Shown piece after piece: positions 47,467-61,083 of a DNA stretch of 64,000 nucleotides. The first letter of the stretch is position 1, and every line of letters begins with the position of its first letter. A program made the position numbers and the translations under genes. Source of the DNA: Escherichia phage PGN829.1; the sequence record NC_070871.1; one strand, given 5' to 3'. The notes beneath the pieces are model-generated. The model worked only from the letters and a program-made list of their open reading frames with translations. It searched no databases and had not been told where the DNA came from.

Positions 47467-50400
47467 TTGAACAGGAAACATGCTATGTCAACATTTGACC
47501 GTCTGGCAGGTTTCGCAGACAGCATCACTAATGCTAAGCAAGTCGATGTCTCTACTGCAACCTCTCAGAAGCAAGCTGCACAAGGGCAAAGCCCTTTCCA
47601 ATTAACCCCAGAGAATGCTTACAATCTCCAAACTGGTCGTGTAGGTAATCTTGGAATTGGTGCATTCGAACCAGGTTCACTTCAGGCAGATTTCACTCAA
47701 GCCTCCCCATTAGAAATCCTTAATAAATACGGTAATGAGCAAGGTCTACAGATTATTAATAGCCGAGCTAATGCTGCTGATGTTGTACGTCAGGACTTAT
47801 CTAAACAACGTACTAACGCGGAAGCATTTGGTGATACTCTTTCTGGTGTTGGTCTTGGTGTTGCTAATACCCTTGGGGGCATTGCTGCTCTTGGTACAGG
47901 TCTGGTCAATGATAATGCCGGAGCATCCATTGCTTCCGGGATGGATTGGCTGAATGAAGGTGTACACAATTTACAGTCTGATGCACTGAATGCTACCCGT
48001 AAGGTTGTTCAGAATCAGAACCAGATTTCTGCACAAAAGAACCAGAAGCTCTATGAAGAAGATATTAAAAATGGGGAGAGCAGTTTGGTTGCCTCCCTGT
48101 CTCGCATTGGTCGTGATGCTTTTGATTCTGTTGCTAATACACTTGATAATGGTATGGCTGCTACCGATGGGCTGAGTGAAGGTGTTGGTTCTCTCTTTAC
48201 TGGTGGTCCATTAATTCGTGGTGTATCCGCACTCGGTAAAGTAATGGTAGGTGGAGATAAAGCCGTTAAAGGTATTACCCTAGCTGCTGAGTTAGGTTCA
48301 CGTCCTGCACAGATTGCATTGTCTGCTGGTCGTGTTGCTGCACCTGCTATTGCAATTGGTGGTATGGAAGCTGGTGGTGCATACCAGCAGACTGCTTCTG
48401 AAATCATGAAGATGTCCCATCAAGAATTGGCAAGTAAGTCTCCTGTTTATCAACAACATATCGCTGATGGTTTATCTCCTGATGAAGCACGTCGTCAAAC
48501 TGCATCTGAAACGGGTATCATTGCTGCTAGCTTAACTGCTCCAGTTGCTGCTGCTACTGGTCCACTGGTATCTAAGTTTGAACTTAACCCACTTAAGGTA
48601 GGTTCACTGGCTGGTGCTGGCTCTAACATGCTTCGTGAAACCGTAGAAGAAGGTATTCAGTCTGGTACAAGTCAGTTTGCACAGAACAAGGCAATTCAGG
48701 GTAATGTAGATGCTAAGCGTGATCTGCTTAAAGGTGTCGGTGAGCAAGCAGGTCTTGGTGCACTCTATGGCTTCGGTAGTGCTGGTGTTTCTCAGGCTCC
48801 TGGTGCAACTGTTAAAGCTGTTGGTGCTTCTGCTGGCCCTGCTCTTCGTACTACCCTGGCTGGTGCTTCTCTGGTTGGTAGTGCATTAGCAAAAGCTGCT
48901 TCTCCTATTACTAACATCCTGGTTCAACGTGGTGAAGAAGTTGCTAAGCGTAATGAACAAGCATCCCCTGTATCTGATGCCACTGTTAATGCTGCTGCAC
49001 AAGAAGCTACTGCTCAGGCAGAACAAGCACAAGCAACTGTACAGGAAGCAGTAGATGCAATGGATATTTCTCCTGAAGAGAAAGCTGCTGCTACTCAGTA
49101 TGCTGCTGACTTAACTCAGGCAATGAAGTTTGACCCAGTAGAGTTAGAGCAAGCTAATCCAGCAATCCGTGAAGCCGTTTCTGGTTCCACTAACCGTGTT
49201 GAAGCTATTCAGAAGATGGCTGACCTGGTTAATACTGCCGAAGACCCTAACGTTCAAATGGAAGCTGCAATCCAGATGTATGACAATATCATGTCTATGG
49301 ATAGCTTCATTAACCGTGACCCAGGTGCTCTGGCTAACCTGGAACAAGGTTCCCCTGCTGCTGCAATCGTTGACCAGTTCTCTGGTCTGATGGCTAACGT
49401 TCAGAATACACCTAAAGTACTTCGTGCATTCCGTGCTATTCATTCTATGATTCAGGAACAGGCTGAAGCAGGTAAACTGAAAGCTACTGAAGAAGCCAAC
49501 CAAGCCCAAGCAAACAATATTGCTATGGCTGCTGATATGTCTCCAGAAGTACTGGATGCTGATTCAGTGAACATGATTCTGAAACATGCAAGTGAAGGTA
49601 AGATTACACTGGGGAATCATCAGCGTGCTGCCCTGCAATCGGCTGCTGCCTTGTTACAGGGTGCACGAGAATTTGATGCTAAAGCAGAAGAACTAGGCTT
49701 ACGTCCTCAAGACATTGTTAGTAAACAGATTAAAACCGACGAGTCTCGTTCTAATGAAGGTCAGTACTCTGCGTTGCAACATGCTAAACGCATTCGTTCT
49801 GCGTACAACTCTGGTAATTTCGATTTGGCTTCCGCTTACCTCGACGACTTTATGAAGTTCGCCCAGCACATGCAGAATAAGGTCGGAGCGTTGAATGAGC
49901 ATCTGATTTCTGGGAATGCGGATAAGAATAAGTCTGTCCATTATCAGGCTCTTACTCCCTCCCGTGAATGGGTACGTAGTCGTACTGGTCTTGGTGTCAA
50001 TCCGTATGATACCAAGTCGGTTAAGTTTGCCCAGCAAGTAGGACTGGAGGCCAAAACCGTAGCTGATATTGCTAACGCACTTGCTACGGCTTACCCGGAG
50101 CTTAATGTTTCTCATGTGAAGGTTACTCCATTAGATTCACGTCTGGACAAGCCTGCTGCCCAGGTAGTTAAAGAGTTCCGTCAAGGTGGTCTTGATGCCA
50201 CTCAGTCTCAACAGACCAATGAACCAGTGAATCAGGTTGATGAAACTCCTGCACCAGCGCAAGAGACTACTACTACTGTACAGCCTAAAGCTAAACCAGT
50301 GGTAGAAAATAAGACTGTTCCTGTTAAAGAGGCTAGTTCAAAAGCAGAAGAAGTCTCTACTACTAAGTCTGAAACAGTAGATGCTACCCTCACCAATGAG

Positions 50401-53400
50401 GATACCACTCAAAAAGTAGCTGAAACTAAAACGGAAATGGAAACAGTTTTCCCTGTCTATAACAATGACAAGACACCGAACCAGTTCCTGAAATCATTTA
50501 CCCTGCCGGAAGAACCTAAGTCTCGCACCATTGGTTCTGAATCCCCTTTGACTGATATTAAGCAAGCACTGTCTTCTACTGCACGCTTTGAAGCATTCAC
50601 TCAAAAAGAAAATAACGCTCTCACAAGTGATGTGATTAAGCGTTATCAGGACTTAATGGGCTTTGGTGAAACTCTGAAGACTACTCTGTCTGATCGTCTG
50701 GCTAAGTTTCTTGCTAATAAGAACGTTGGTAAACGCTTTGCAGAAGGCACAGAGGCTAACCGTTGGGTAGGTGGTAAGTTACTTAATATCGTAGAGAAAG
50801 ACGGAGACACCTTTAAGTTCAATGACCAGTTGTTAGAGACTGCTGTACTTGCTGGTCTGCAATGGCGACTGACTGCTACACAGAATGCTGCTGTTAAAGA
50901 CATGAAAGATGTAGCTGCTATTACTGGTGTAGAGGCATCTCTGTTACCTGAAGGTATTCTGGCTGACTTCGAGAATGCTCAGACTCTGGTTGAAGCTACT
51001 AACTCACTGGCTCAAAAGATTGAATCTTACTGGGGTTTGAATCGCAATCCAAATGCACCACTGGGTTATACCAAAGGTATCCCAATGGCAATGGCTACGG
51101 AGATTCTGTCTTCTTTCATTGAGATGGGTGAAGTTAAAGAATCTATGCTGGATGTGTCTGAGTTTGACCCAGACTCTAATAAGACCGTCGGTCTGTATAC
51201 CATTGAGAAGCTGGATGATAACGATGCCATTAACAAGTTCCCTACTGCTATCGAGGAAGCTGTTCTCGTAGAACCAGAAGAGAAAATGTACTTTGGTGAT
51301 GATATTCCTTCCGTGGCTCAAACTCAGTTACGTAACCCTGCTGTTAAGAATACCCCAGAGCAGAAAGCTGCTCTTAAAGCAGAACAGGCTACCGAGTTCC
51401 GTGTACACATGCCGATGGTTAACTTCTATGAAGCATTAGGTCGTGACAACATTCTGGAACTGATGGGTGCTGGTACTCTTAATCCTGAACTGCTGAACGT
51501 GAACACTGCTAAGTCACTGGAGGGTAAAAACCTGTCAGTGTCTATGGCATATGATTCCCTGTTCGGTGTAATCAACCAGTTACAGGAACAGGAGAATGGT
51601 CTGGATACGCCTATTCACTATGGTTACAACATGACCCGTGTAGGTCGTATGCAGATGTTAGGTAAGAACAACCCACAATCCAGTAAACTGGTTCGTGAAG
51701 CAATTCTGCCAACCTTCTCTACTATTGACTTGAGTAATGAAAATAGCCAAACATTCTCTGACTTCCAGCTAGGACTGGCTCAGGCATTGGGTATCAAGGT
51801 ACATAACATGTCCCGTGAAGCTATGTCTGAAAAGTTGACCAAGGCTCTGGAAGGTAATCTGAAACCTGCCGTTGATATGGTGGTTGAGTTTGATAAGTCT
51901 GGTCACTTACCAGCTAATGCAGTGGATATTCTGAAAACATCTCTGGGCGGCGATAAATCATTCGTAGCTCTTATGGCTCTTATGGAATATGCCCGTTACC
52001 TGAACAGTGATGACCGTGCCAACTTTAATACCCCTCTGTACGTTGAAGCCGATGGTGTAACTAACGGACCAATCAACGCAATGGTATTAATGACCGGTGG
52101 TAAGTTCACTTCAGACTGGGTTAAGAATACTGCTAAAGGTGGCTTGTTCTTCGGTAAAGCTGGTAAGACTATGAATGAACATCGTTCACAGGATGACAGT
52201 GTTGACCTGTATGAAGCATCTACCAATGGTCTGCAACAAGCACTTAATGAGTTACGTACTACTTACCGTAACAACGTTCCGGTTATGAACCAAATGAATC
52301 ATCTTCAGAAGTTAATGGACCTGTTTATTAAAGACTTTAACCTGAATGAAGACGGTACTCTGGACCTGAAACGTGGTATCGCTAAAAACCCACTGACTAT
52401 TACCATCTATGGTTCTGGTGCTCGTGGTATTGCTGGCAAGATGGTTAGTGCAATTACTGACACCATCTATGAACGCTTCAGTGATGTTCTGCAAGCTCGT
52501 GCTGCTGACCCTAGCATTTCCCCAGCTATGGCAATGTTTGGTAAGGAGGCTGCGTCTGAGGCTGATGCTCAGGCTATGCTGGATACTTTCCTTACTTCTA
52601 TGGAAGCACTGACTGGTAATGTTCCAGTTATGCGTAAAGGTGAACTGTCTATTCAACAGGTAGAAGGTGCTCTGACTGGTAAGTTAGACCCTCAGAAGTT
52701 TACCGTATCAGGAAATGCTCTGAAGAACTTACAAGAGAACATGCTTCACCTGTTCGTTGAACCAATGCGTACTGGTATCCGTAATACTGTTGGTGAAGGT
52801 CTGATGCATTCTACTGAGAACTTGCAGAAGGCTACCCAGATTCAGTCACTGGTATTGCAGGATATGTTCCAGCAACGTGTCCAGGAGAAGCTAGCAGAAA
52901 AAGAAAAAGACCCAACATGGAAAAAGGGTGATTTCTTAACACAGAAAGAACTGAATGAAATCCAGGAATCATTATCCCCACTAGCTCCAATGATTGAGAC
53001 TGGTTCACAGACTTTCTACATTGCTGGCAGTGAAAATACTGATGTTGCTAACCAAGTTCTGGCTACCAACTTAGATGATCGTATGCGTGTGCCAATGAGC
53101 ATCTATGCTCCTTCACAGGCAGGTGTTGCAGGTATTCCTTTTATGACCATTGGTACTGGCGATGGCATGATGATGCAGACCCTTTCTACTATGAAAGGTG
53201 CTCCGAAGAATACCCTGAAAATCTTTGATGGTATGAACATTGGTATCAACAACATCACTGATGCAAGTCGTAAAGCTAATGAGGCTGTATACACTTCCTG
53301 GCAGGGTAACCCTATCAAGAATGTCTACGACTCCTTCTCTAAGTTCATGAAGAATGTAGACTTCAGCAAACTGTCTGATGAAACCAAACAGGCTATCGCT

Positions 53401-56400
53401 AAATCTGCTCTGGAATATGACCAGCGTGAAGGTGCTACCGATGACCTGTTACGTGTTGGTGCTGAACAGATTGAACGTAACCTGCGTAATATTGCTCTGG
53501 GTGTAGATATTCGTCACAAAGTAATGAACCAGGTACAGACTACTGTTGACCAGATGGCTGCTGTTGGTGCTCCTTATGTGAACAACGGTAAAATCTCTCT
53601 GGAAGGTCTGACCGTAGACCAACAAGTAGCTAAGCTAAATGAACTGTTCGATGCTGAATTAAACAAACGTCGTGATGCAGTACGTGCTGCTAAAGTAGAA
53701 CCAGTGAAAGAAGTGCCAGCAATGGAACAGGTTGGTCGTGTACTGAAGTCTGGTGTACGCCTACTGTCTAATACTGCTATCTCTAAGCTGGCTAAAGAGA
53801 TGTCTCCGGAACAGCAAGCAGTACTGAAAGAAGTACAGAAATCCCTTGCTGCTAAAGACTATAAGGTTGTTTACGGTACACCTTCCCAACTGGATGCTTA
53901 TGCTATTGAGAAGAATATTACTCGCCCAGCACCAGAAGATATTGAAGCTGCTGAAGCTGGTAATGCGTATGGTTGGACTAACTTTGAAGATAAGACCATC
54001 TACTTAGTTACCCCTTCCTTAGAGACTCTGGTTCATGAATTGGTGCATGCTTCTACTTTTGAATCTGTACTGGCTCACTATGAGGGTACTCCTAATGAAG
54101 CGGTCCAGAACATTGAAGACCTGATGAACCAGTTCCGTGCTCTGGATGTTAAGGATGAATCCCCGGCAGTTCGGGAAGCATATGCAGATGCTCTTAATAC
54201 TATTAACGGTCATTTATCTAATGGCTTTATTGAGCCAGCAATGGCTAAAGCTGCTGCACTGAATGAGTACATGGCATGGGGTTTAACCAACCGTGAACTG
54301 ATTAGTAAGCAGAAGAAAACCACTGCACTTAAGACTATGGTTCAGGCTGTATATGAAGCAATTAAACGTCTGGTATTCGGGCGTAAGAAAGCACCAGCTA
54401 ATGCAGATGATATGTTCTCTGGCTTACTGTTTAACTCGTCCGTAGTTATGCGTGGGCAAGCTCCTACTGCTGCTGTAGTCAAAGATACTACTCTGTTCCA
54501 TAACAAAACGTATGGTGACAATACTCGTCTGGAAGAGCTAGGGAAAACCTTCGATAAACTGATTACTGACTACATTGGTTCTGAACCAGTACAGCAAGTA
54601 ATTCGTAAAGGTAAGTTCTCTGATGCAGTGGTTAATGCGACTAAAGTAACTCGTGATGTTCAGGCTCATGGCTTCACTATGAATATGCAGGAACAACGTC
54701 TCTTTACTAACATTGTTGCTGCTCTGGCTACTGAGGCTGCTATTAATCCTGCTGCTCTGGCTCGTGCGCAGGAATACTACACACATGTTACTAAGAACCT
54801 GACCGTTGAGTCATTCATGACTGACCCAGATAGTACTAACCCTGCTGACCGTTACTATGCACAGCAGAAGTTCGATACCATCATGGGTGCTAACAACATT
54901 GAGTTTGATTCACAAGGTCGTTCCTCCTTACTGCCTACCTTTATTGGTCTGGCGATGGTAAGTGAAGAGGTACGTAAAGTGCTGGCTGATATTCCAGTTA
55001 TGAAAGTAGACAAGAAATCTGGCAATACCGCTGATGCAATGCTGACTAACATCGGTACTGCTGCAATGGCTAGTCTGAATGCTCGTGTAGCAGGAGATAC
55101 TAAAGCTACCAACGTACAGGAAGGTATGGATGCACTGGCTCAGACAATCATGCAGACCAGTCTTAATGCACAATCCTTCTATGATTCCGTTGCTACTCCT
55201 ACGGGTAATGCTATTGATCGTGCTAACCAGTATCTGGTGGACTCTATTGATGTACTGTCTACCCGTGCTTTAGAAGGTGCTCGTGAAGTTGCAGCTAATA
55301 CCAAGAACCCGTTGGTTAAAGGTGCTGCCCATGCTGCACAATTAATAGCTGCTATTGCTACAGAGAAGAATGGTGCAATCGTAGCCGAAGGTGTTATGGC
55401 TGCAATGAACCAAGGTAAAGTATGGCAACCCTTTCACGATCTGGTTAATGACTTAACTGGTCGTACTAAGAGTAATGCTTCTGTATATGATTTGATTAAG
55501 GCAGTGCGTGCCCAGGTACAGGCTGACCGTCAACAGTTCCGTGAACATCTGCCCACCACTATCGCATCTAAGTTCAGCCGTAAGCTGACTAATGATGAGT
55601 GGAAAGCAATGCATACCGGTATGGGTAAAACCGACTTAGCTGTTCTGCGTGACACTATGTCTCTGGCTGAAATTCGTGACCTGCTGACTGACCAGAAGAT
55701 TGTTGACCGTGAGGTTAATAAACTGGAAGCAGATTTGCAGAAACAAGCTGGTCGTAACTGGCCTTTGATTAACCGTAAATCTAAGCAACTGGCTCAGTAC
55801 ATGATTAATGGAACAGTTGGTAATAACCTGCTGCGTAATGCTACAGCAATCTCTCGTATGCTGGGTGAACGTCAGGCTGCACGTTCTACTGTAGACGTAG
55901 CTCAACTGGATAAACTGATTACTCTGTATGCACTGGAAGCAATGAGTAAAACTGACCGCGAGGTGTTATCTTCACTGGCTCAGACAGAGATTGAAGGCAT
56001 GGACTTCGCTACTTCTTATCTGGTTGGTCAGCGTAAAGATGAAATGGCTAAAGCCAAATCTGATACTCGTGCAACTCTGAACCAGTACAAAGGGTATATT
56101 CCTGGTGAGACTAAACAGGGTGTTAACTTGATAGTTGCTGAAGATAGTCAGTTTGCTGATTTGATTGAGAAGTCCTATGTACGTCTGGGTACTTATCAGG
56201 GTAGCTCTGCTAATCGTGGTCCAGCACGTAGCTACTACTTTGCACCGGTACAGGCACAGGCTCCATTCTCGCAAGGTATCTTACAGAACGTTCGCAATAC
56301 TGCTGGTGGTGTAGACCTTGGTACAGGCTTTACGATGGGTACAATGGTAGCTGGTCGTATCACTGACAAGCCTTCTGTAGACCGTATCACTAAAGCACTG

Positions 56401-57837
56401 GCTCGCGGTGAACGTGGTAATGAACCACTGCTGCCTGTATATGATGATAAAGGCAATGTGGTTGCTTATGAGCAATCTATTGACCCTAACATGCTGAAGC
56501 ACATTGAGGGTGAGAACCATCTCGCTCGTGCAATCGGTGTATGGCGTGGTCGTCAGGTAGAGGAAGCTAAGGCTCAGCGTTTCAACGATATGCTGATTGA
56601 GAACCTGCATAGCATGTATGAGAACGACATTAAGATGTCTACCTCTAATAAGTCACAGTACGTTAACCTTCTTGGTTCTAAACTGGATCCAGTAACTGCT
56701 GATGCTCTTAAACTGATGAACAGTGAAACTCGTCAGAAAGCAGAAAGTCTGTTTGGTGAAGGTGAACTGTGGGTACGTCGTGACATGCTGAATGATGCAC
56801 TGGGTTATCGTGCAGCTTCTGTAGGTGATGCCTGGTCTGGTAACTCTCGTTGGTCACCGGAAACATTGGATACCTTCAAGAAAGCTATGTTGGGTGTATT
56901 TGGCAACCGTGCTTACAAATATGTAATGGGTGGTGAGAATCTGGTTCAGAACTTAGTTAAAGAAGCCAAAACTCTGATTGTAGTTAAATCAGTAGTTGTG
57001 CCTGCTGTTAACTTCCTGGCTAACCTTTACCAGATGGTCGGTCGTGGTGTACCTGTTAAGAACATTACTAAGAGTATTCCACAGAAGACTGCTGAGATTA
57101 ATCAGTACCTGAAATCTCGTCTGCGTCAGGTAGATGCAGAAGCGGAATTACGTGCAGCTACTAACCCGAACCAGATTCGTAAACTTAAAGCTGAGATTCA
57201 GTCCATCACTGATAGCCATAAGCGTATGAGTATCTGGCCTCTGTTAGAAGCTGGTGAGTTTTCTTCAATTGCAGATGCTGGTATTGGTCGTGATGACATC
57301 CTGATTACTGAAGGTAAACTTCATGAATACATGGATAAGCTGGCTGATAAGTTACCTAAGTCTGTACGTAATGCTGGACGTTATGCACTTATCACCAAAG
57401 ATACTGCTCTGTTCCAGGGTATCCAGAAGACGGTTGAGTACTCTGACTTTATTGCTAAAGCAATCATCTATGATGATTTGACTCAGCGTAAAGGTAAGAC
57501 TCGTGAAGAAGCACTTGGACGTGTAACGGAAGAGTTCATTAACTATGACCGTCTGCCTGGTCGCTTCCGTGGGTATATGGAAAGTGTTGGTCTTATGTGG
57601 TTCTATAACTTTAAGATTCGTTCTGCAAAAATTGCAGTATCCATGATTCGTAACAACCCGGTACACGCAGCTATGGCTATGTTGGCTCCAACTCCTACCA
57701 TGTTTGGTAATGTTGGTTTACCTATTCAGGACAACATCTTCAGTATTGCTGCACAAGGCAATCTCGGTTACTCCTGGGGCTTCGGTCAGGGACTTCGTGC
57801 CCATAACCTTAACCCTTGGCTCAATCTAGCTAACTAA
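47467..57837 (+). CDS. virion-encapsidated RNA polymerase (vRNAP, N4 gp50-like giant protein)
   Basis: Single 3456-aa ORF (N4 vRNAP about 3500 aa); last gene of the late operon, converging on a bidirectional terminator. Confidence 0.9.
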   Translation: MNRKHAMSTFDRLAGFADSITNAKQVDVSTATSQKQAAQGQSPFQLTPENAYNLQTGRVGNLGIGAFEPGSLQADFTQASPLEILNKYGNEQGLQIINSRANAADVVRQDLSKQRTNAEAFGDTLSGVGLGVANTLGGIAALGTGLVNDNAGASIASGMDWLNEGVHNLQSDALNATRKVVQNQNQISAQKNQKLYEEDIKNGESSLVASLSRIGRDAFDSVANTLDNGMAATDGLSEGVGSLFTGGPLIRGVSALGKVMVGGDKAVKGITLAAELGSRPAQIALSAGRVAAPAIAIGGMEAGGAYQQTASEIMKMSHQELASKSPVYQQHIADGLSPDEARRQTASETGIIAASLTAPVAAATGPLVSKFELNPLKVGSLAGAGSNMLRETVEEGIQSGTSQFAQNKAIQGNVDAKRDLLKGVGEQAGLGALYGFGSAGVSQAPGATVKAVGASAGPALRTTLAGASLVGSALAKAASPITNILVQRGEEVAKRNEQASPVSDATVNAAAQEATAQAEQAQATVQEAVDAMDISPEEKAAATQYAADLTQAMKFDPVELEQANPAIREAVSGSTNRVEAIQKMADLVNTAEDPNVQMEAAIQMYDNIMSMDSFINRDPGALANLEQGSPAAAIVDQFSGLMANVQNTPKVLRAFRAIHSMIQEQAEAGKLKATEEANQAQANNIAMAADMSPEVLDADSVNMILKHASEGKITLGNHQRAALQSAAALLQGAREFDAKAEELGLRPQDIVSKQIKTDESRSNEGQYSALQHAKRIRSAYNSGNFDLASAYLDDFMKFAQHMQNKVGALNEHLISGNADKNKSVHYQALTPSREWVRSRTGLGVNPYDTKSVKFAQQVGLEAKTVADIANALATAYPELNVSHVKVTPLDSRLDKPAAQVVKEFRQGGLDATQSQQTNEPVNQVDETPAPAQETTTTVQPKAKPVVENKTVPVKEASSKAEEVSTTKSETVDATLTNEDTTQKVAETKTEMETVFPVYNNDKTPNQFLKSFTLPEEPKSRTIGSESPLTDIKQALSSTARFEAFTQKENNALTSDVIKRYQDLMGFGETLKTTLSDRLAKFLANKNVGKRFAEGTEANRWVGGKLLNIVEKDGDTFKFNDQLLETAVLAGLQWRLTATQNAAVKDMKDVAAITGVEASLLPEGILADFENAQTLVEATNSLAQKIESYWGLNRNPNAPLGYTKGIPMAMATEILSSFIEMGEVKESMLDVSEFDPDSNKTVGLYTIEKLDDNDAINKFPTAIEEAVLVEPEEKMYFGDDIPSVAQTQLRNPAVKNTPEQKAALKAEQATEFRVHMPMVNFYEALGRDNILELMGAGTLNPELLNVNTAKSLEGKNLSVSMAYDSLFGVINQLQEQENGLDTPIHYGYNMTRVGRMQMLGKNNPQSSKLVREAILPTFSTIDLSNENSQTFSDFQLGLAQALGIKVHNMSREAMSEKLTKALEGNLKPAVDMVVEFDKSGHLPANAVDILKTSLGGDKSFVALMALMEYARYLNSDDRANFNTPLYVEADGVTNGPINAMVLMTGGKFTSDWVKNTAKGGLFFGKAGKTMNEHRSQDDSVDLYEASTNGLQQALNELRTTYRNNVPVMNQMNHLQKLMDLFIKDFNLNEDGTLDLKRGIAKNPLTITIYGSGARGIAGKMVSAITDTIYERFSDVLQARAADPSISPAMAMFGKEAASEADAQAMLDTFLTSMEALTGNVPVMRKGELSIQQVEGALTGKLDPQKFTVSGNALKNLQENMLHLFVEPMRTGIRNTVGEGLMHSTENLQKATQIQSLVLQDMFQQRVQEKLAEKEKDPTWKKGDFLTQKELNEIQESLSPLAPMIETGSQTFYIAGSENTDVANQVLATNLDDRMRVPMSIYAPSQAGVAGIPFMTIGTGDGMMMQTLSTMKGAPKNTLKIFDGMNIGINNITDASRKANEAVYTSWQGNPIKNVYDSFSKFMKNVDFSKLSDETKQAIAKSALEYDQREGATDDLLRVGAEQIERNLRNIALGVDIRHKVMNQVQTTVDQMAAVGAPYVNNGKISLEGLTVDQQVAKLNELFDAELNKRRDAVRAAKVEPVKEVPAMEQVGRVLKSGVRLLSNTAISKLAKEMSPEQQAVLKEVQKSLAAKDYKVVYGTPSQLDAYAIEKNITRPAPEDIEAAEAGNAYGWTNFEDKTIYLVTPSLETLVHELVHASTFESVLAHYEGTPNEAVQNIEDLMNQFRALDVKDESPAVREAYADALNTINGHLSNGFIEPAMAKAAALNEYMAWGLTNRELISKQKKTTALKTMVQAVYEAIKRLVFGRKKAPANADDMFSGLLFNSSVVMRGQAPTAAVVKDTTLFHNKTYGDNTRLEELGKTFDKLITDYIGSEPVQQVIRKGKFSDAVVNATKVTRDVQAHGFTMNMQEQRLFTNIVAALATEAAINPAALARAQEYYTHVTKNLTVESFMTDPDSTNPADRYYAQQKFDTIMGANNIEFDSQGRSSLLPTFIGLAMVSEEVRKVLADIPVMKVDKKSGNTADAMLTNIGTAAMASLNARVAGDTKATNVQEGMDALAQTIMQTSLNAQSFYDSVATPTGNAIDRANQYLVDSIDVLSTRALEGAREVAANTKNPLVKGAAHAAQLIAAIATEKNGAIVAEGVMAAMNQGKVWQPFHDLVNDLTGRTKSNASVYDLIKAVRAQVQADRQQFREHLPTTIASKFSRKLTNDEWKAMHTGMGKTDLAVLRDTMSLAEIRDLLTDQKIVDREVNKLEADLQKQAGRNWPLINRKSKQLAQYMINGTVGNNLLRNATAISRMLGERQAARSTVDVAQLDKLITLYALEAMSKTDREVLSSLAQTEIEGMDFATSYLVGQRKDEMAKAKSDTRATLNQYKGYIPGETKQGVNLIVAEDSQFADLIEKSYVRLGTYQGSSANRGPARSYYFAPVQAQAPFSQGILQNVRNTAGGVDLGTGFTMGTMVAGRITDKPSVDRITKALARGERGNEPLLPVYDDKGNVVAYEQSIDPNMLKHIEGENHLARAIGVWRGRQVEEAKAQRFNDMLIENLHSMYENDIKMSTSNKSQYVNLLGSKLDPVTADALKLMNSETRQKAESLFGEGELWVRRDMLNDALGYRAASVGDAWSGNSRWSPETLDTFKKAMLGVFGNRAYKYVMGGENLVQNLVKEAKTLIVVKSVVVPAVNFLANLYQMVGRGVPVKNITKSIPQKTAEINQYLKSRLRQVDAEAELRAATNPNQIRKLKAEIQSITDSHKRMSIWPLLEAGEFSSIADAGIGRDDILITEGKLHEYMDKLADKLPKSVRNAGRYALITKDTALFQGIQKTVEYSDFIAKAIIYDDLTQRKGKTREEALGRVTEEFINYDRLPGRFRGYMESVGLMWFYNFKIRSAKIAVSMIRNNPVHAAMAMLAPTPTMFGNVGLPIQDNIFSIAAQGNLGYSWGFGQGLRAHNLNPWLNLAN

Positions 57838-59040: not shown

Positions 59041-59080
59041 CAAATAAAAAAGTCCCCCAGAGTGACGGCTCCAGGGGACT
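59041..59080 (-). terminator. intrinsic terminator closing the minus-strand noncoding/tRNA-like transcription unit
   Basis: Stem AGTCCCC/GGGGACT enclosing a 16-nt loop, followed on minus strand by TTTTTATTTG. Confidence 0.55.
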
Positions 59081-59762
59081 TAGTACTATTTACCCATAGC
59101 TGGGAGGCTTTTGGTTCTTACCACGAAGACAGTCCACGCTGACCAGGCTTGGGATTGATAGTCCCGTTCCTGTGGTAATTACTCAGGCTAGGATTTAAGG
59201 AGTTCCTATTCTCCAGCGAAATTCCCGTCGAAGGGAATAACAATACAATAGCAGCCACTGGACTGTCTTACCAGTGTTGTCTTTAGAGTGCGGTGCAATC
59301 AGGACTATGTTACTGCTAAATAGGTGAGTCATGCCAGACTCTAACTGGCTCCTTCTTCGCAATCCTTACATACCCCTACATAATTATTGCGTTAAGCTTT
59401 TTTGTTTAAGTTTAAGTGAAGGCGTTCTTGCTGACTCATAATAGGGTGGGCGTTTGACGAATGACTAGTTCGTTACTACCCATTTGCCATAAGTACCTGG
59501 CGACTTGGGTTTGAGGTGGGAGTCCGAGTCCTGTACAGCCTTACCGTTAACACATTGGCAGCGTATCTAGAATTGCACTTCCGGCAACTGGATTTAACTG
59601 TTACACCTCAAATATGGTAGGGGCGTCCAGAAGTCTCATCTGGTACTTACGCCGTCGTATGGTTACGACTTACCCCCATAATTCTTCCAATTCAGAGTAG
59701 CACTGTCACGGTAGGTGCTTTAAATGCCGGGAAACATTTAAATATACAATGCTACTTTGAAT

Positions 59763-59886
59763 TGGTTATCAGTGAAGGATTCGAACCTCCGGTTGGAGTC
59801 TATAGCTTACCGCAGCAGCCCTCCAATCTAGCGGTGTCACACTTAGTCCAAACTTGAACATGTCAAGCCATCTCGTGCAACTGATA
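59763..59886 (-). tRNA. tRNA-like element 1 (acceptor stem, D-arm-like, T-arm, encoded CCA; 124 nt, no canonical anticodon arm)
   Basis: Minus-strand read: TATCAGT...GGAGG-TTCGAAT-CCTTC-ACTGATA-A-CCA; 7/7 acceptor pairing; U8, A14, G18G19 at expected positions; about 48 nt excess in the body. Confidence 0.4.
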
Positions 59887-59888
59887 AT

Positions 59889-59954
59889 TGGTTCCGGCGT
59901 CTGGACTCGAACCAGAACACTCATGCCGTGCACGGCACTAGTACCTACACCGGA
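59889..59954 (-). tRNA. tRNA-like element 2 (acceptor stem, T-arm, encoded CCA; only 66 nt)
   Basis: Minus-strand read: TCCGGTG-...-TCTGG-TTCGAGT-CCAGA-CGCCGGA-A-CCA; 2 nt from element 1; central GCCG-TGCA-CGGC hairpin instead of D/anticodon arms. Confidence 0.4.
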
Positions 59955-60135
59955 ATAAATTGCCAGGGATTCCACCTGGCTCCATCTGTTTTTAAAGTCA
60001 CTCAGATATCGTCTGGACTTGTTGTGGAGTGACGCACCACCTCACTCTTAAATGTTAACCCATTCCCAGCCCCACAACACACGCTACGGTTAAGATTATT
60101 GCGCATGGTGTATGGTCTTGCTGGTCACAACGGAA

Positions 60136-60218
60136 AGAGCACTTGCGGAGTCGAACCGCCTTGTCTTCTAGAGCTTTCGCATATAACTAATCGCTAGTCT
60201 ACGTCACCCGTAATGCTC
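60136..60218 (-). tRNA. tRNA-like element 3 (acceptor stem and T-arm, no encoded CCA; 83 nt)
   Basis: Minus-strand read: GAGCATT-...-GGCGG-TTCGACT-CCGCA-AGTGCTC-T; acceptor 7/7 with one G-U; body does not fold into a canonical cloverleaf by hand. Confidence 0.3.
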
Positions 60219-60912
60219 TTTCCTGTTATGTTCCCTGACTTATTAATCACACCTCAGGGACGCAGTGCGCCGAATTTGTTTACAAGGAATCGGAAGACCT
60301 TGCTGACTTACAGGCTATTACGCCGCCATCAGAATAACATCATCGTTTGCATTTATGTAATTGGTTCGTTTCTAAAAAACCGCATAATCGCTTACGAAAA
60401 CTATCAAAGAGTACACTAAGCACAGGTAGCTATCCTGCCGTCTTCTCTACCTACACCGGCTACAGTGTAGACCTCCGCACGTTAGCTTAATATACTCATT
60501 GATAGGATGTTATAATAGGGGAGGGAGGACGAGTCCCTCTTTACCCTATGATTTAGTTTACACGTAAGACCTAACATTTCAATGCTGGATGAATAGAGTA
60601 ATGAACTATCCGACATTAATGGTTAATGTTGTGCTCAGCATGAGCGTTAGTTGATAAGGGATCTGAAGCCTTATCCCAAAGATACTAACCTTTGGGATAT
60701 AGCCTAAGATTCAGAAATGGCCACTATAGGGAGAGGCCATTGATTAACCCGAATGTTGCTTTACATTTTCTGTGATAACCCATTCTTAAAATAGTCTGTC
60801 TGACGGATGGGGGGCCACCCCTAGCGTCAGTGCCATACGGCAAAGATTAAGTTAAGAAAGGTTATGATAGGAGTTCCTATCTCAAAGGATTCTAACAGAA
60901 CCCTTCACGATA

Positions 60913-61083
60913 TTAACTACTCTTTTTCAGTGCTTCTACTTCGCCCTCTTTATACCAAGCATATGGTATTAAGATTTTGCAGCCTTCTGATTCAATGTGA
61001 AATGCTTTCTTTCCTTCAACAGGTTCTCCACCCATGAAAGAACTAATCTTCCCATTGAGCCAGTGAATAGTAAATTTGTTCAT
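60913..61083 (-). CDS. small hypothetical protein (56 aa), below ORF-track cutoff
   Basis: Own translation MNKFTIHWLNGKISSFMGGEPVEGKKAFHIESEGCKILIPYAWYKEGEVEALKKSS; GAGG SD 7 nt upstream. Confidence 0.35.
   Translation of the reverse strand: MNKFTIHWLNGKISSFMGGEPVEGKKAFHIESEGCKILIPYAWYKEGEVEALKKSS

Follow-up and report, generated by a model that had tools for sequence, protein, structure and literature searches.

A minus-strand RNA island at positions 59044–60912 of a 64,000-nt stretch of Escherichia phage PGN829.1 DNA (NC_070871.1; hereafter the window) contains a 171-nt module that, judged by its sequence, derives from transfer-messenger RNA (tmRNA), encoded in the host by ssrA. This module (60403–60233, minus strand) is the most conserved and most widespread unit of the island and was missed in the original prediction, which was made from the letters alone and concentrated on three tRNA-like elements in the same segment. 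The tmRNA–SmpB system is the universal ribosome-rescue system of bacteria and has long been tied to phage growth, including that of lambda-immP22 hybrids and Mu. We propose, at even confidence or slightly less, that the module is an anti-tmRNA RNA that would dock on host tmRNA and substitute its own tag template. This proposal is based on a host-specific antisense arm, a free messenger region immune to that arm, frame-setting nucleotides, a codon-constrained tag that resembles a degron, and a tmRNA-like helix 5 (H5) and pseudoknots.

At its 5′ end the module carries 31 nt that are reverse-complementary to E. coli ssrA nt ~68–106. This arm has three blocks: UAGUUUUCGU (60403–60394), which pairs with ssrA 97–106 (tag codons 3–6); GCGAUUA (60391–60385), which pairs with ssrA 85–91 (U85, A86, and the start of the resume codon); and UGCGGUUUUUUA (60384–60373), which pairs with ssrA 68–79 (the 3′ strand of pseudoknot 1, PK1, and the A-rich linker). 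The PK1 3′ strand belongs to the targeted stretch, as does the single-stranded mRNA-like domain (MLD) of tmRNA. Those motifs of the leader that do not vary in the alignment coincide exactly with the antisense blocks, and the complementarity is extended, significant, conserved, and directed at one defined site.

Several calculations bear on the specificity of this match. First, RNAduplex gave -41.4 kcal/mol for the window arm and E. coli ssrA, compared with -25.1 ± 2.7 kcal/mol for shuffled arms, and the mean for 78 unique leaders was -40.6 compared with -30.2 for shuffles; at least 51 of these 78 leaders targeted ssrA ~54–107. Second, alignment of the window arm to the reverse complement of ssrA scored 42 (shuffles 19.8 ± 3.7), and ten leader types scored 33–55 against the reverse complement of ssrA 60–110 (shuffles ~20 ± 3.7). 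Third, block 1 formed nine or more contiguous pairs in 75/79 leaders, compared with a shuffled median of 5. Fourth, cofolding of full-length ssrA with the module gave a ΔΔG of -11.8 for the natural arm and -3.9 ± 2.0 for a shuffled arm. Finally, the arm paired far better with host ssrA (-32.6) than with the messenger region of its own module (-16.3), and the host was the better partner in 85/85 copies. Within the island the arm was the only strong ssrA-antisense window (z ~-10), the next best being unconvincing (z ~-4). A GC-rich hairpin region at 60854–60811 (minus strand) is moderately complementary to the ssrA 5′ end (E -36.1, z ~-3), which may well be chance.

The ssrA genes of E. coli, Rosenbergiella, and Pantoea do not differ in the targeted stretch, which explains how one module could serve phages of many hosts. 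In the Erwinia phage Faunus, the arm sequence GAAGUUUUCGU predicts ACGAAAACUUC in the ssrA gene of its host. The arm lies at the predicted 5′ end of the module RNA, and the leader is unpaired in the consensus structure; in the window the first 3 nt of the arm are covered by the 3′ strand of the closing helix of the upstream cassette (60401–60505). In KFS-SE2 and Sf18, a promoter-like site with 10/12 matches to consensus stands immediately upstream of the arm, and these sites predict an RNA start a few nucleotides before the conserved motif (U)AGUUUUCG. The 5′ end of the module RNA is predicted to lie at or near UAGUUUUCG.

Beyond the arm, the module resembles the messenger half of tmRNA. The best Rfam matches in the window were tmRNA_permuted (30.7 bits, E 9e-4) and beta_tmRNA (22.3 bits, E 2.5e-4); in each case the alignment falls on the tag and the score stays below the gathering threshold (47 and 84 bits, respectively); tmRNA matches were also obtained in the loci of relatives. 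The single-stranded linker places a U at -5 and an A at -4 relative to the resume codon, which we take to correspond to U85 and A86 of E. coli tmRNA, with their frame-setting role, and its spacing of 22–23 nt is conserved in leader form A. The tag frame has no AUG start and no Shine-Dalgarno sequence, and an in-frame UAG lies 7 codons upstream; it begins at a GCA resume codon and ends, as tmRNA tags do, in a hydrophobic/Ala C-terminus and a stop codon. We collected 153 copies from two IMG/VR pattern scans (69 and at least 120 contigs) and other loci. These copies contain 21 tag variants of the form AN[DE]xxx[LRK]x[AV]A (ANDDVVLMAA, ANDNVFLAVA, ANEEMYLAVA, ANDEQFLAVA, ANDDLMLMAA, and ANDSEMRVAA among them), all of 10 codons followed by UAA or UGA. 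The 21 peptides are encoded by 40 nucleotide versions: the last codon is GCN with all four bases at N, and Leu7 switches between CUG and UUG.

We examined the structure in a MAFFT alignment of 49 representatives below 93% identity. Across the whole structure, 96% of cells were paired, compared with 26–46% for slid controls, and 12/20 pairs had double changes (126 cells), a level of covariation reached by 0/500 shuffles. All four pairs of the H5-like helix around the stop codon had changes on both sides. In the first pseudoknot (PK-a), 99% of cells were paired and 6/9 pairs had double changes. In the second (PK-b), stem 1 was paired in 100% of cells, with 2 covarying pairs, the loop UGAUUAAUAA was invariant, and stem 2 covaried by eye (GCCC/GGGC, AUCC/GGAU, GGCGGGAG/CUCCCGCC, CCCGU/ACGGG). 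RNAalifold independently found stem 1 of PK-a and of PK-b and left the leader unpaired. A column-pair covariation scan recovered known helices only, with no PK1-like fold and no long-range leader pairing. A second version of the pseudoknot pair, with the loop GUAUUAG(A/G)AA and the same topology, is present in PBM-3 (locus L001, 2700–2800) and P1 (locus L201, 1270–1370). The two versions are swapped between close relatives (window compared with PBM-3 and PD205, counterpart 60302–60233 in the window), which indicates recombination inside the module.

The module contains no tRNA-like domain (TLD) of the tmRNA type (G3:U70 acceptor, T arm, CCA), and ARAGORN called no tmRNA in the window or in more than 20 related loci. 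No T arm was found near the module in P1 and lambdoid contexts, no acceptor piece was found in P1, lambdoid prophage, or Kuttervirus contexts, and the 5′ end of the module is not an acceptor strand. Candidates for a TLD in cis were rejected: the 5′ stem suggested by Rfam (GCUUA/UAAGC) belongs to the helix of the upstream cassette, ring closure by flanking helices failed, and element 3 has neither G3:U70 nor CCA and occupies a slot that holds inserts without a T arm in other phages. Sense-strand similarity to E. coli ssrA was not significant (score 31, shuffles 25.4 ± 4.2), so the tag, the structure, and the Rfam matches below threshold are the only signs of kinship with tmRNA. Canonical translation of the tag frame or of a +1-frame AUG was also rejected (no Shine-Dalgarno sequence; AUA and +1 peptides not conserved), as was a likeness of the leader to the tRNA-Ala anticodon loop (CUUUGC), which is not conserved, N4-like phages having UUAUGC.

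The module is widespread. Used alone as a query, it matched 513 of 50,697 phage records, with Salmonella (181), Escherichia (140), and Klebsiella (105) as the leading hosts, followed by Shigella, Citrobacter, Erwinia, Yersinia, Aeromonas, and others. It is kept down to ~70% identity across at least nine unrelated phage groups, and the carriers include Gamaleyavirus, Skatevirus, Kuttervirus, Mooglevirus, Carvajevirus, Faunusvirus, Roufvirus, Sashavirus, and Punavirus. Among individual carriers are Vibrio phage pYD38-A, Aeromonas phage phiA050, and the Erwinia phages Faunus and Fifi44. It is also present in 145/5426 complete E. coli genomes, lambdoid prophages included, and in prophages of Rosenbergiella, Pantoea, Erwinia, and Pseudocitrobacter; pattern matches in Firmicutes and Bacteroidetes genomes were chance occurrences and not modules. 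The module was unannotated in every record inspected.

In all contexts the module lies on the tRNA strand inside islands of tRNA and small RNA genes. In lambdoid prophages it stands right after the pR′ promoter and tR′ terminator, between Q and the holin gene, so its expression there should depend on Q antitermination; in an E. coli O26:H11 prophage (locus L177, 3185–3425) it takes the slot in which Stx phages carry tRNA genes and stx. In the reference genome of P1 (NC_005856; locus L202, 68791–69072) the unannotated module, with the tag ANDDLMMVAA, is part of the C1-repressed ban operon, where a "dicF-like region" immediately precedes it and trnA and trnT lie downstream, and two putative antisense RNAs are adjacent. 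The lambdoid and P1 placements predict expression in the lytic phase.

Table 1. Features of the RNA island, from upstream to downstream on the minus strand (positions in the window).
Feature	Position	Strand	Description
Promoter-like site, sigma-70-like	60889–60916	-	TTAATA-16-TAGAAT, TG-extended; consensus match only
Two stable hairpins (60741–60715, 60710–60661)	60661–60741	-	minimum free energy -36.8 kcal/mol, z -5.4
Stem-closed cassette, variable insert	60401–60505	-	20-bp closing helix 60505–60485/60421–60401; -42.8 kcal/mol, z -3.9
Module: antisense arm, three blocks	60373–60403	-	RNAduplex, alignment, and cofolding with ssrA
Module: single-stranded linker, 22 nt	60351–60372	-	ends AUAAAU, with U(-5) and A(-4) ahead of the resume codon
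Module: tag frame	60318–60350	-	GCA AAC GAU GAU GUU AUU CUG AUG GCG GCG UAA (ANDDVILMAA*); Rfam tmRNA alignments
Module: H5-like helix around stop codon	60303–60332	-	CUGA 60332–60329/UCAG 60306–60303, inner GGC/GCC
Module: pseudoknot PK-a	60270–60302	-	stem 1 CAAGG 60302–60298/CCUUG 60287–60283; stem 2 CCGA 60293–60290/UCGG 60273–60270
Module: pseudoknot PK-b	60233–60269	-	stem 1 CGCAC 60269–60265/GUGUG 60252–60248; stem 2 CCCUGA 60259–60254/UCAGGG 60238–60233
Cassette carrying element 3 as cargo	60126–60230	-	12–18-bp closing helix prolongs 7-bp acceptor-like stem; z -4.13
Element 3, 83 nt	60218–60136	-	acceptor GAGCAUU/AGUGCUC, U73, no CCA; T loop UUCGACU
Second cassette, ~105 nt	60020–60125	-	GUUGUG...CCACAAC helix; z -1.7, weakly better than shuffles
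Element 2, tRNA-like RNA, 66 nt	59954–59889	-	acceptor UCCGGUG/CGCCGGA, A73, encoded CCA, T arm
Element 1, tRNA-like RNA, 124 nt	59886–59763	-	acceptor UAUCAGU/ACUGAUA, A73, encoded CCA
Stem-closed cassette, paralogous to other closing helices	59688–59765	-	AAUUCAAAGUAGCAUUG ... CAGUGCUACUCUGAAUU; -32.4 kcal/mol, z -7.35
Further conserved noncoding units	59082–59687	-	include 59505–59621 and UAUGUAGGGGUAUGUA hairpin
Intrinsic terminator, end of unit	59041–59081 (stem 59081–59050)	-	13-bp stem, 7 GC pairs, T run

We envisage the following mechanism. The island transcript would be cut to small RNAs by host enzymes that process tRNA precursors, with RNase P cutting at acceptor stems, 3′ trimming halting at encoded CCA ends, and RNase III or RNase E cutting in the long closing helices. 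The module keeps the messenger half of tmRNA, with the 31-nt arm in place of the tRNA-like half. By docking on host tmRNA, the arm would cover the segment that runs from the PK1 3′ strand to tag codon 6, would thereby hide the resume codon and tag of the host, and would set the phage resume codon ~22 nt from the duplex. Ribosomes rescued by host Ala-tmRNA–SmpB would then switch to the phage template, in effect using a chimeric two-piece tmRNA to which the host contributes the TLD and the phage the MLD, and would append AANDDVILMAA in place of AANDENYALAA. The data directly show the sequence family with its structure and codon-like constraint, the conserved antisense complementarity and its preference for host over self, and the orientation and genomic contexts; pairing in vivo, ribosomal use of the phage frame, and a benefit to the phage are what we infer from them. 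In broader terms, phages of Enterobacterales, Vibrio, and Aeromonas may carry a parasitic "half tmRNA" that makes host tmRNA chimeric and replaces the degron with a phage tag during lytic growth, a generalization that we offer tentatively; carriers would include P1, lambdoid and Stx-type prophages, Kuttervirus, Felix-O1-like phages, and G7C-like N4 phages.

Several considerations weigh against docking and template substitution. The case is built from sequence and predicted structure, and ribosome loading of an MLD tethered by base pairing alone is, to our knowledge, without precedent. A duplex of ~29 bp could trigger RNase III cleavage of both RNAs, which would favor pure inhibition. The target is invariant in the sampled Enterobacterales, which leaves no host differences with which the arm could covary. 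Complementarity is also uneven: AU-rich leaders gain little over shuffles (Sf18-type -28.7 compared with -23.6, Faunus-type -26.7 compared with -25.9), and blocks 2 and 3 are interrupted by bulges, with longest runs (medians 6 and 7) barely above those of shuffles. The codon-like pattern of the tag overlaps the structural constraint of H5. Finally, any link of elements 1 and 2 to the module is putative; N4 carries element 2 without the module, and most module-bearing phages have neither element.

The main rival is pure inhibition, in which the arm would block host tmRNA or destroy it (for example, through RNase III), trans-translation would be off in lytic growth, the tag would go untranslated, and the tmRNA-like remainder would merely stabilize the RNA or bring it to S1, SmpB, RNase R, or ribosomes. 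We regard this as a serious if unlikely possibility. The antisense evidence fits it as well as it fits docking with substitution, synthetic anti-tmRNA oligonucleotides against the target region inhibit trans-translation and suppress nascent-chain release from stalled ribosomes (PMC3384345), and a phage TLD-only RNA of the DS6A type, reported to inhibit tmRNA, provides a precedent (PMC4131195). However, an inhibitor would need neither a 10-codon frame with third-position variation, a constant stop, and an Ala/Val C-terminus nor the U(-5)A(-4) pair, and the messenger region of the module has diverged exactly where the arm would bind, which suggests that it must stay free.

The tRNA-like elements that had drawn attention to the segment lie downstream of the module. 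Their positions, lengths, perfect 7-bp acceptor stems, and T arms were borne out, as was the encoded CCA of elements 1 and 2, and the T loops (UUCGAAU, UUCGAGU, and UUCGACU in elements 1, 2, and 3, respectively) are of the canonical 7-nt UUCRANY type. Ordinary tRNAs, the outcome that would have dissolved the original prediction, were not found: ARAGORN, which did recognize the genuine tRNAs of relatives and the tmRNAs of bacteria (E. coli, Rosenbergiella, and Pantoea ssrA), returned 0 tRNA and 0 tmRNA genes for the whole window, Rfam in permissive mode gave no RF00005 (tRNA) match at E ≤ 10 in the region, and the sole tRNA-type match was tRNA-Sec (18 bits) over element 3. Elements 1 and 2, separated by 2 nt, each combine a 7-bp acceptor stem, a discriminator base, and a 3′ CCA; neither has a D arm or a 7-nt anticodon loop by ARAGORN, Rfam, or folding, and so neither forms a cloverleaf. 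Element 1 has the T arm GGAGG-UUCGAAU-CCUUC and three internal helices. In element 2 a single hairpin with a 4-nt loop replaces the D and anticodon arms, as had been noted (fold z -2.79).

Elements 1 and 2 are restricted to N4-like phages (68 INPHARED records), and element 2 occurs in N4 itself (97.8%). Aligned relatives supported the expectation that the elements exceed chance. Among 7 sequence variants of each, 5/29 pairs in element 1 and 4/22 pairs in element 2 were compensatory, and only 3 unpaired columns of element 1 were variable. Three of the compensatory pairs of element 1 are consecutive in the acceptor stem (UAUCAGU/ACUGAUA, UACCAGU/ACUGGUA, UACUGGU/ACCAGUA), and one T-stem pair covaries in both elements. 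Their conservation with compensatory changes indicates functional RNAs, and the suggestion that these two might be decayed tRNA genes did not hold. They cannot decode, because they have no anticodon loop, and the G3:U70 rule excludes them as alanine acceptors, their third pair being U3-A70 (element 1) or C3-G70 (element 2). Of the roles raised for them, those of processed, CCA-ended small RNAs, of decoys, and of processing handles are all still plausible. Our best guess is that they serve as decoys or competitors for factors that recognize the acceptor/T minihelix or the CCA end, and they may be further members, with the module, of one toolkit against translation quality control. Two tmRNA-related identities were rejected. 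Element 1 as a tmRNA 3′ part was suggested by a common GACUAAG, but when elements 1 and 2 were locally aligned with E. coli ssrA they scored no better than shuffles; a TLD-only tmRNA of the DS6A type would call for G3:U70 and for ssrA similarity above shuffles, and neither was found. The direct repeat ACCAAUU brackets element 1 (59893–59887 and 59769–59763), and phages that lack the element (N4, IME11, and locus L182) have a single copy, which suggests that element 1 was inserted by recombination at the CCA-AUU junction.

Element 3 is of a different kind. It is tRNA-like, as the original prediction had it, with its T arm at 60160–60144, but it is not the third of three alike elements: from comparison across phages it is an exchangeable, variable cargo inside a conserved long helix. 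The same closing helix holds unrelated inserts in PD205, KFS-SE2, and ZCEC08, with or without a T arm across phages, and a tRNA-like RNA with a D arm occupies the slot in PBM-3 and ECBP1. Paralogs of this closing helix (...AGNGCAUU/AGUGCNCU...) delimit two or more additional cassettes of the window (60505–60401 and 59765–59688). Helices of this type, 12–20 bp long, often precede GUUGUGG...CCACAAC and enclose cargo that differs among close relatives; such cassettes are also seen in the E. coli O26:H11 prophage (locus L177, 3427–3490 and 3672–3780) and in P1 (locus L201, 1806–1890). The unit at 60020–60125 has ~80–90% identity to counterparts in Skatevirus KFS-SE2, Segz_1, HF1013, SopranoGao, and 9NA, siphoviruses included. 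The recurrent helices look like an RNA-cassette exchange system or RNase III processing sites. Sub-segments of the island are common piecemeal to unrelated phages, and this sharing together with the paralogous helices indicates a mosaic of exchangeable RNA cassettes.

These comparisons bear on the idea that the segment is a decaying tRNA cluster, whose tRNA-like and tmRNA-like pieces would be pseudogene debris kept by recent ancestry or horizontal transfer. Genuine tRNAs do occur at variable island positions in sister phages (PBM-3, with Rfam tRNA scores of 61.6 and 40.7 bits), the element 3 slot has unrelated inserts in different phages, and annotators have labeled some pieces tRNA-Pseudo and, for elements 1 and 2 in a few records, tRNA-Undet or tRNA-OTHER. 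However, elements 1 and 2 vary almost only by compensatory pairs; the module combines its ~70% identity across nine or more groups with strong covariation and a frame intact in 153/153 copies; and the arm has kept its complementarity to the host despite divergence of the MLD of the module itself. The debris explanation is improbable, and for the module and both of these elements it is by now mostly refuted.

It is more doubtful still that the phage encodes a self-contained two-piece tmRNA, with element 1 or 2 as the TLD, the module as the coding piece, and no need for host tmRNA. Both elements resemble a TLD in outline (acceptor/T minihelix, CCA, and a helix at the place of the anticodon arm) and lie ~300–600 nt downstream of the module in the same unit, but neither has G3:U70 or significant similarity to ssrA, neither accompanies the module in P1, lambdoid prophages, Kuttervirus, Skatevirus, and Mooglevirus, N4 conversely has element 2 but no module, and the module begins with an antisense arm where an acceptor strand would be needed.

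Finally, the conserved region 60213–60416 can hardly be a small plus-strand protein gene in place of an RNA. The plus-strand open reading frame (ORF) there is the only one inside the segment with a match (phrog_26260, unknown function, E 7.5e-7), the opposite strand is stop-free for a median of 48 aa among the 49 representatives, and hypothetical proteins are annotated there in some records; against this, variable sites fall on codon position 1 of the plus frame (the complement of GCN being NGC, for Arg, Gly, Ser, or Cys) and invariant sites on position 3, the module alignment has 1-nt indels, the plus frame is broken (<40 aa) in 13/49 representatives, base-pair covariation including two pseudoknots is not expected in a protein-coding region, and promoters and neighboring tRNAs are on the other strand. 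These patterns show that the ORF is not constrained as protein, and phrog_26260 was probably built from spurious ORF calls on a conserved RNA gene.

The source is a G7C-like N4 phage of E. coli (genus Gamaleyavirus, family Schitoviridae), as established by a 3456-aa ORF (47467–57837, plus strand), the giant virion RNA polymerase gene, and by the closest relatives of the window (PD205, PBM-3, CU10EC, Bp4, ECBP1, IME11, and St11Ph5; 84–95% identity). Several GenBank records of Gamaleyavirus, PBM-3 and PD205 among them, label this gene "DNA polymerase." The RNA island is convergent with it on the minus strand. Across records of the genus, the number of "hypothetical proteins" annotated in the island ranges from 0 to 9, and the names given to its tRNAs disagree (Ile, Cys, Thr, Xle, Ala, Val, Pseudo).

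The segment 59044–60912 is effectively free of ORFs, as had been stated: the largest, one per strand, are 68 aa, and none is credible. The strong terminator said to close the minus-strand unit was likewise found. At the other end, the promoter-like site sits directly past the stop codon of the upstream 56-aa gene (60913–61083, minus strand), a member of a real phage gene family (phrog_14773, E 7e-43), and is a possible start of the island transcript. The segment is a stable-RNA ("tRNA") island at the 3′ end of a minus-strand gene cluster, here without a canonical tRNA, and a mosaic of at least nine structured RNA units between the promoter-like site and the terminator. Three hairpins described at 60652–60741 fold as two. 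In Rfam E-value mode, neither GOLLD, ROOL, nor a similar large phage RNA was matched in the window region or five related loci. The unit at 59505–59621 has an 81–84% match in otherwise unrelated ~150-kb Ackermannviridae phages of Pantoea and Pectobacterium (F5M2A, POP18). The UAUGUAGGGGUAUGUA hairpin (~59390–59358, minus strand) recurs near tRNA genes in Salmonella and E. coli siphoviruses (KFS-SE2, ZCEC08), where it lies downstream of the tmRNA-derived module.

If docking and substitution by the module are borne out, it would be the first natural antisense regulator of tmRNA and the first case of a virus reprogramming the trans-translation template, a new viral takeover of translation quality control, and it would mean that an MLD can work tethered by base pairing alone. 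The presence of the module in P1, in lambdoid prophages of E. coli O26 and other strains, and in common lytic coliphages makes these ideas testable in standard systems. Roughly 1% of sequenced phage genomes carry this unannotated RNA gene, on which annotation pipelines place spurious ORFs (phrog_26260) or pseudo-tRNAs, and the carriers include phage-therapy candidates (N4-like, Kuttervirus, and Felix-O1-like phages). With elements 1 and 2, the few listed phage RNAs that end in CCA but do not decode gain two conserved members. The T4 stable RNAs C and D (species 1 and 2), which are non-decoding tRNA-like RNAs co-transcribed and co-processed with phage tRNAs, offer perhaps their closest analogy, and viral tRNA-like structures are comparable.

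Known systems resemble the module in part. DicF, AgvB, and AsxR, the latter two being anti-small RNAs of enterohemorrhagic E. coli prophages, are likewise phage-borne small RNAs in noncoding islands that pair with host RNA, but their targets are mRNAs or small RNAs and they carry no translatable template. Anti-ssrA oligonucleotides, a tool of ribosome display and cell-free translation, are directed in antisense against the tag-coding region, the same stretch that the phage arm covers (PMC3384345), but they are man-made DNA and supply no replacement template. Phages had so far been known to carry either complete tmRNAs or a TLD-only form: in the tmRNA censuses of 2014 and 2025, mycobacteriophages and Bacillus phage G are the sole phage sources of tmRNAs apart from that form (PMC4131195, PMC11915505). 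Full-text searches outside the subscription literature turned up no MLD-only tmRNA and no natural anti-tmRNA RNA. The TLD-only tmRNA of DS6A is, like the module, a phage-borne half tmRNA thought to interfere with host trans-translation (PMC4131195, PMC11915505). However, DS6A keeps the TLD, for which titration of SmpB has been proposed, whereas the module keeps the MLD and an antisense arm; together with engineered TLD RNAs that inhibit tmRNA, the DS6A form also comes closest to a precedent for elements 1 and 2, if these are viewed as minimal acceptor/T RNAs.

The module shares with tmRNA itself (SsrA; RF00023, clan CL00001) a GCA resume codon after an A-rich stretch with U(-5)A(-4), a tag of enterobacterial length with AN(D/E) at its start and small hydrophobic residues at its end, and a stop codon enclosed by H5, with H-type pseudoknots after it. 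It differs in having no TLD, no PK1, only two pseudoknots, and a 5′ part antisense to tmRNA, and in falling under every Rfam gathering threshold and escaping ARAGORN. The coding piece of the two-piece (permuted) tmRNAs of alpha- and beta-proteobacteria and cyanobacteria is also a separate RNA with tag and pseudoknots that pairs with an acceptor-supplying RNA, and the best Rfam match of the module is the permuted model. In natural two-piece tmRNA, however, both pieces come from one gene, the coding piece starts with the acceptor 5′ strand, and pairing rebuilds P1 and P2; for the phage module, the partner would be intact host tmRNA, and pairing would extend over its messenger region.

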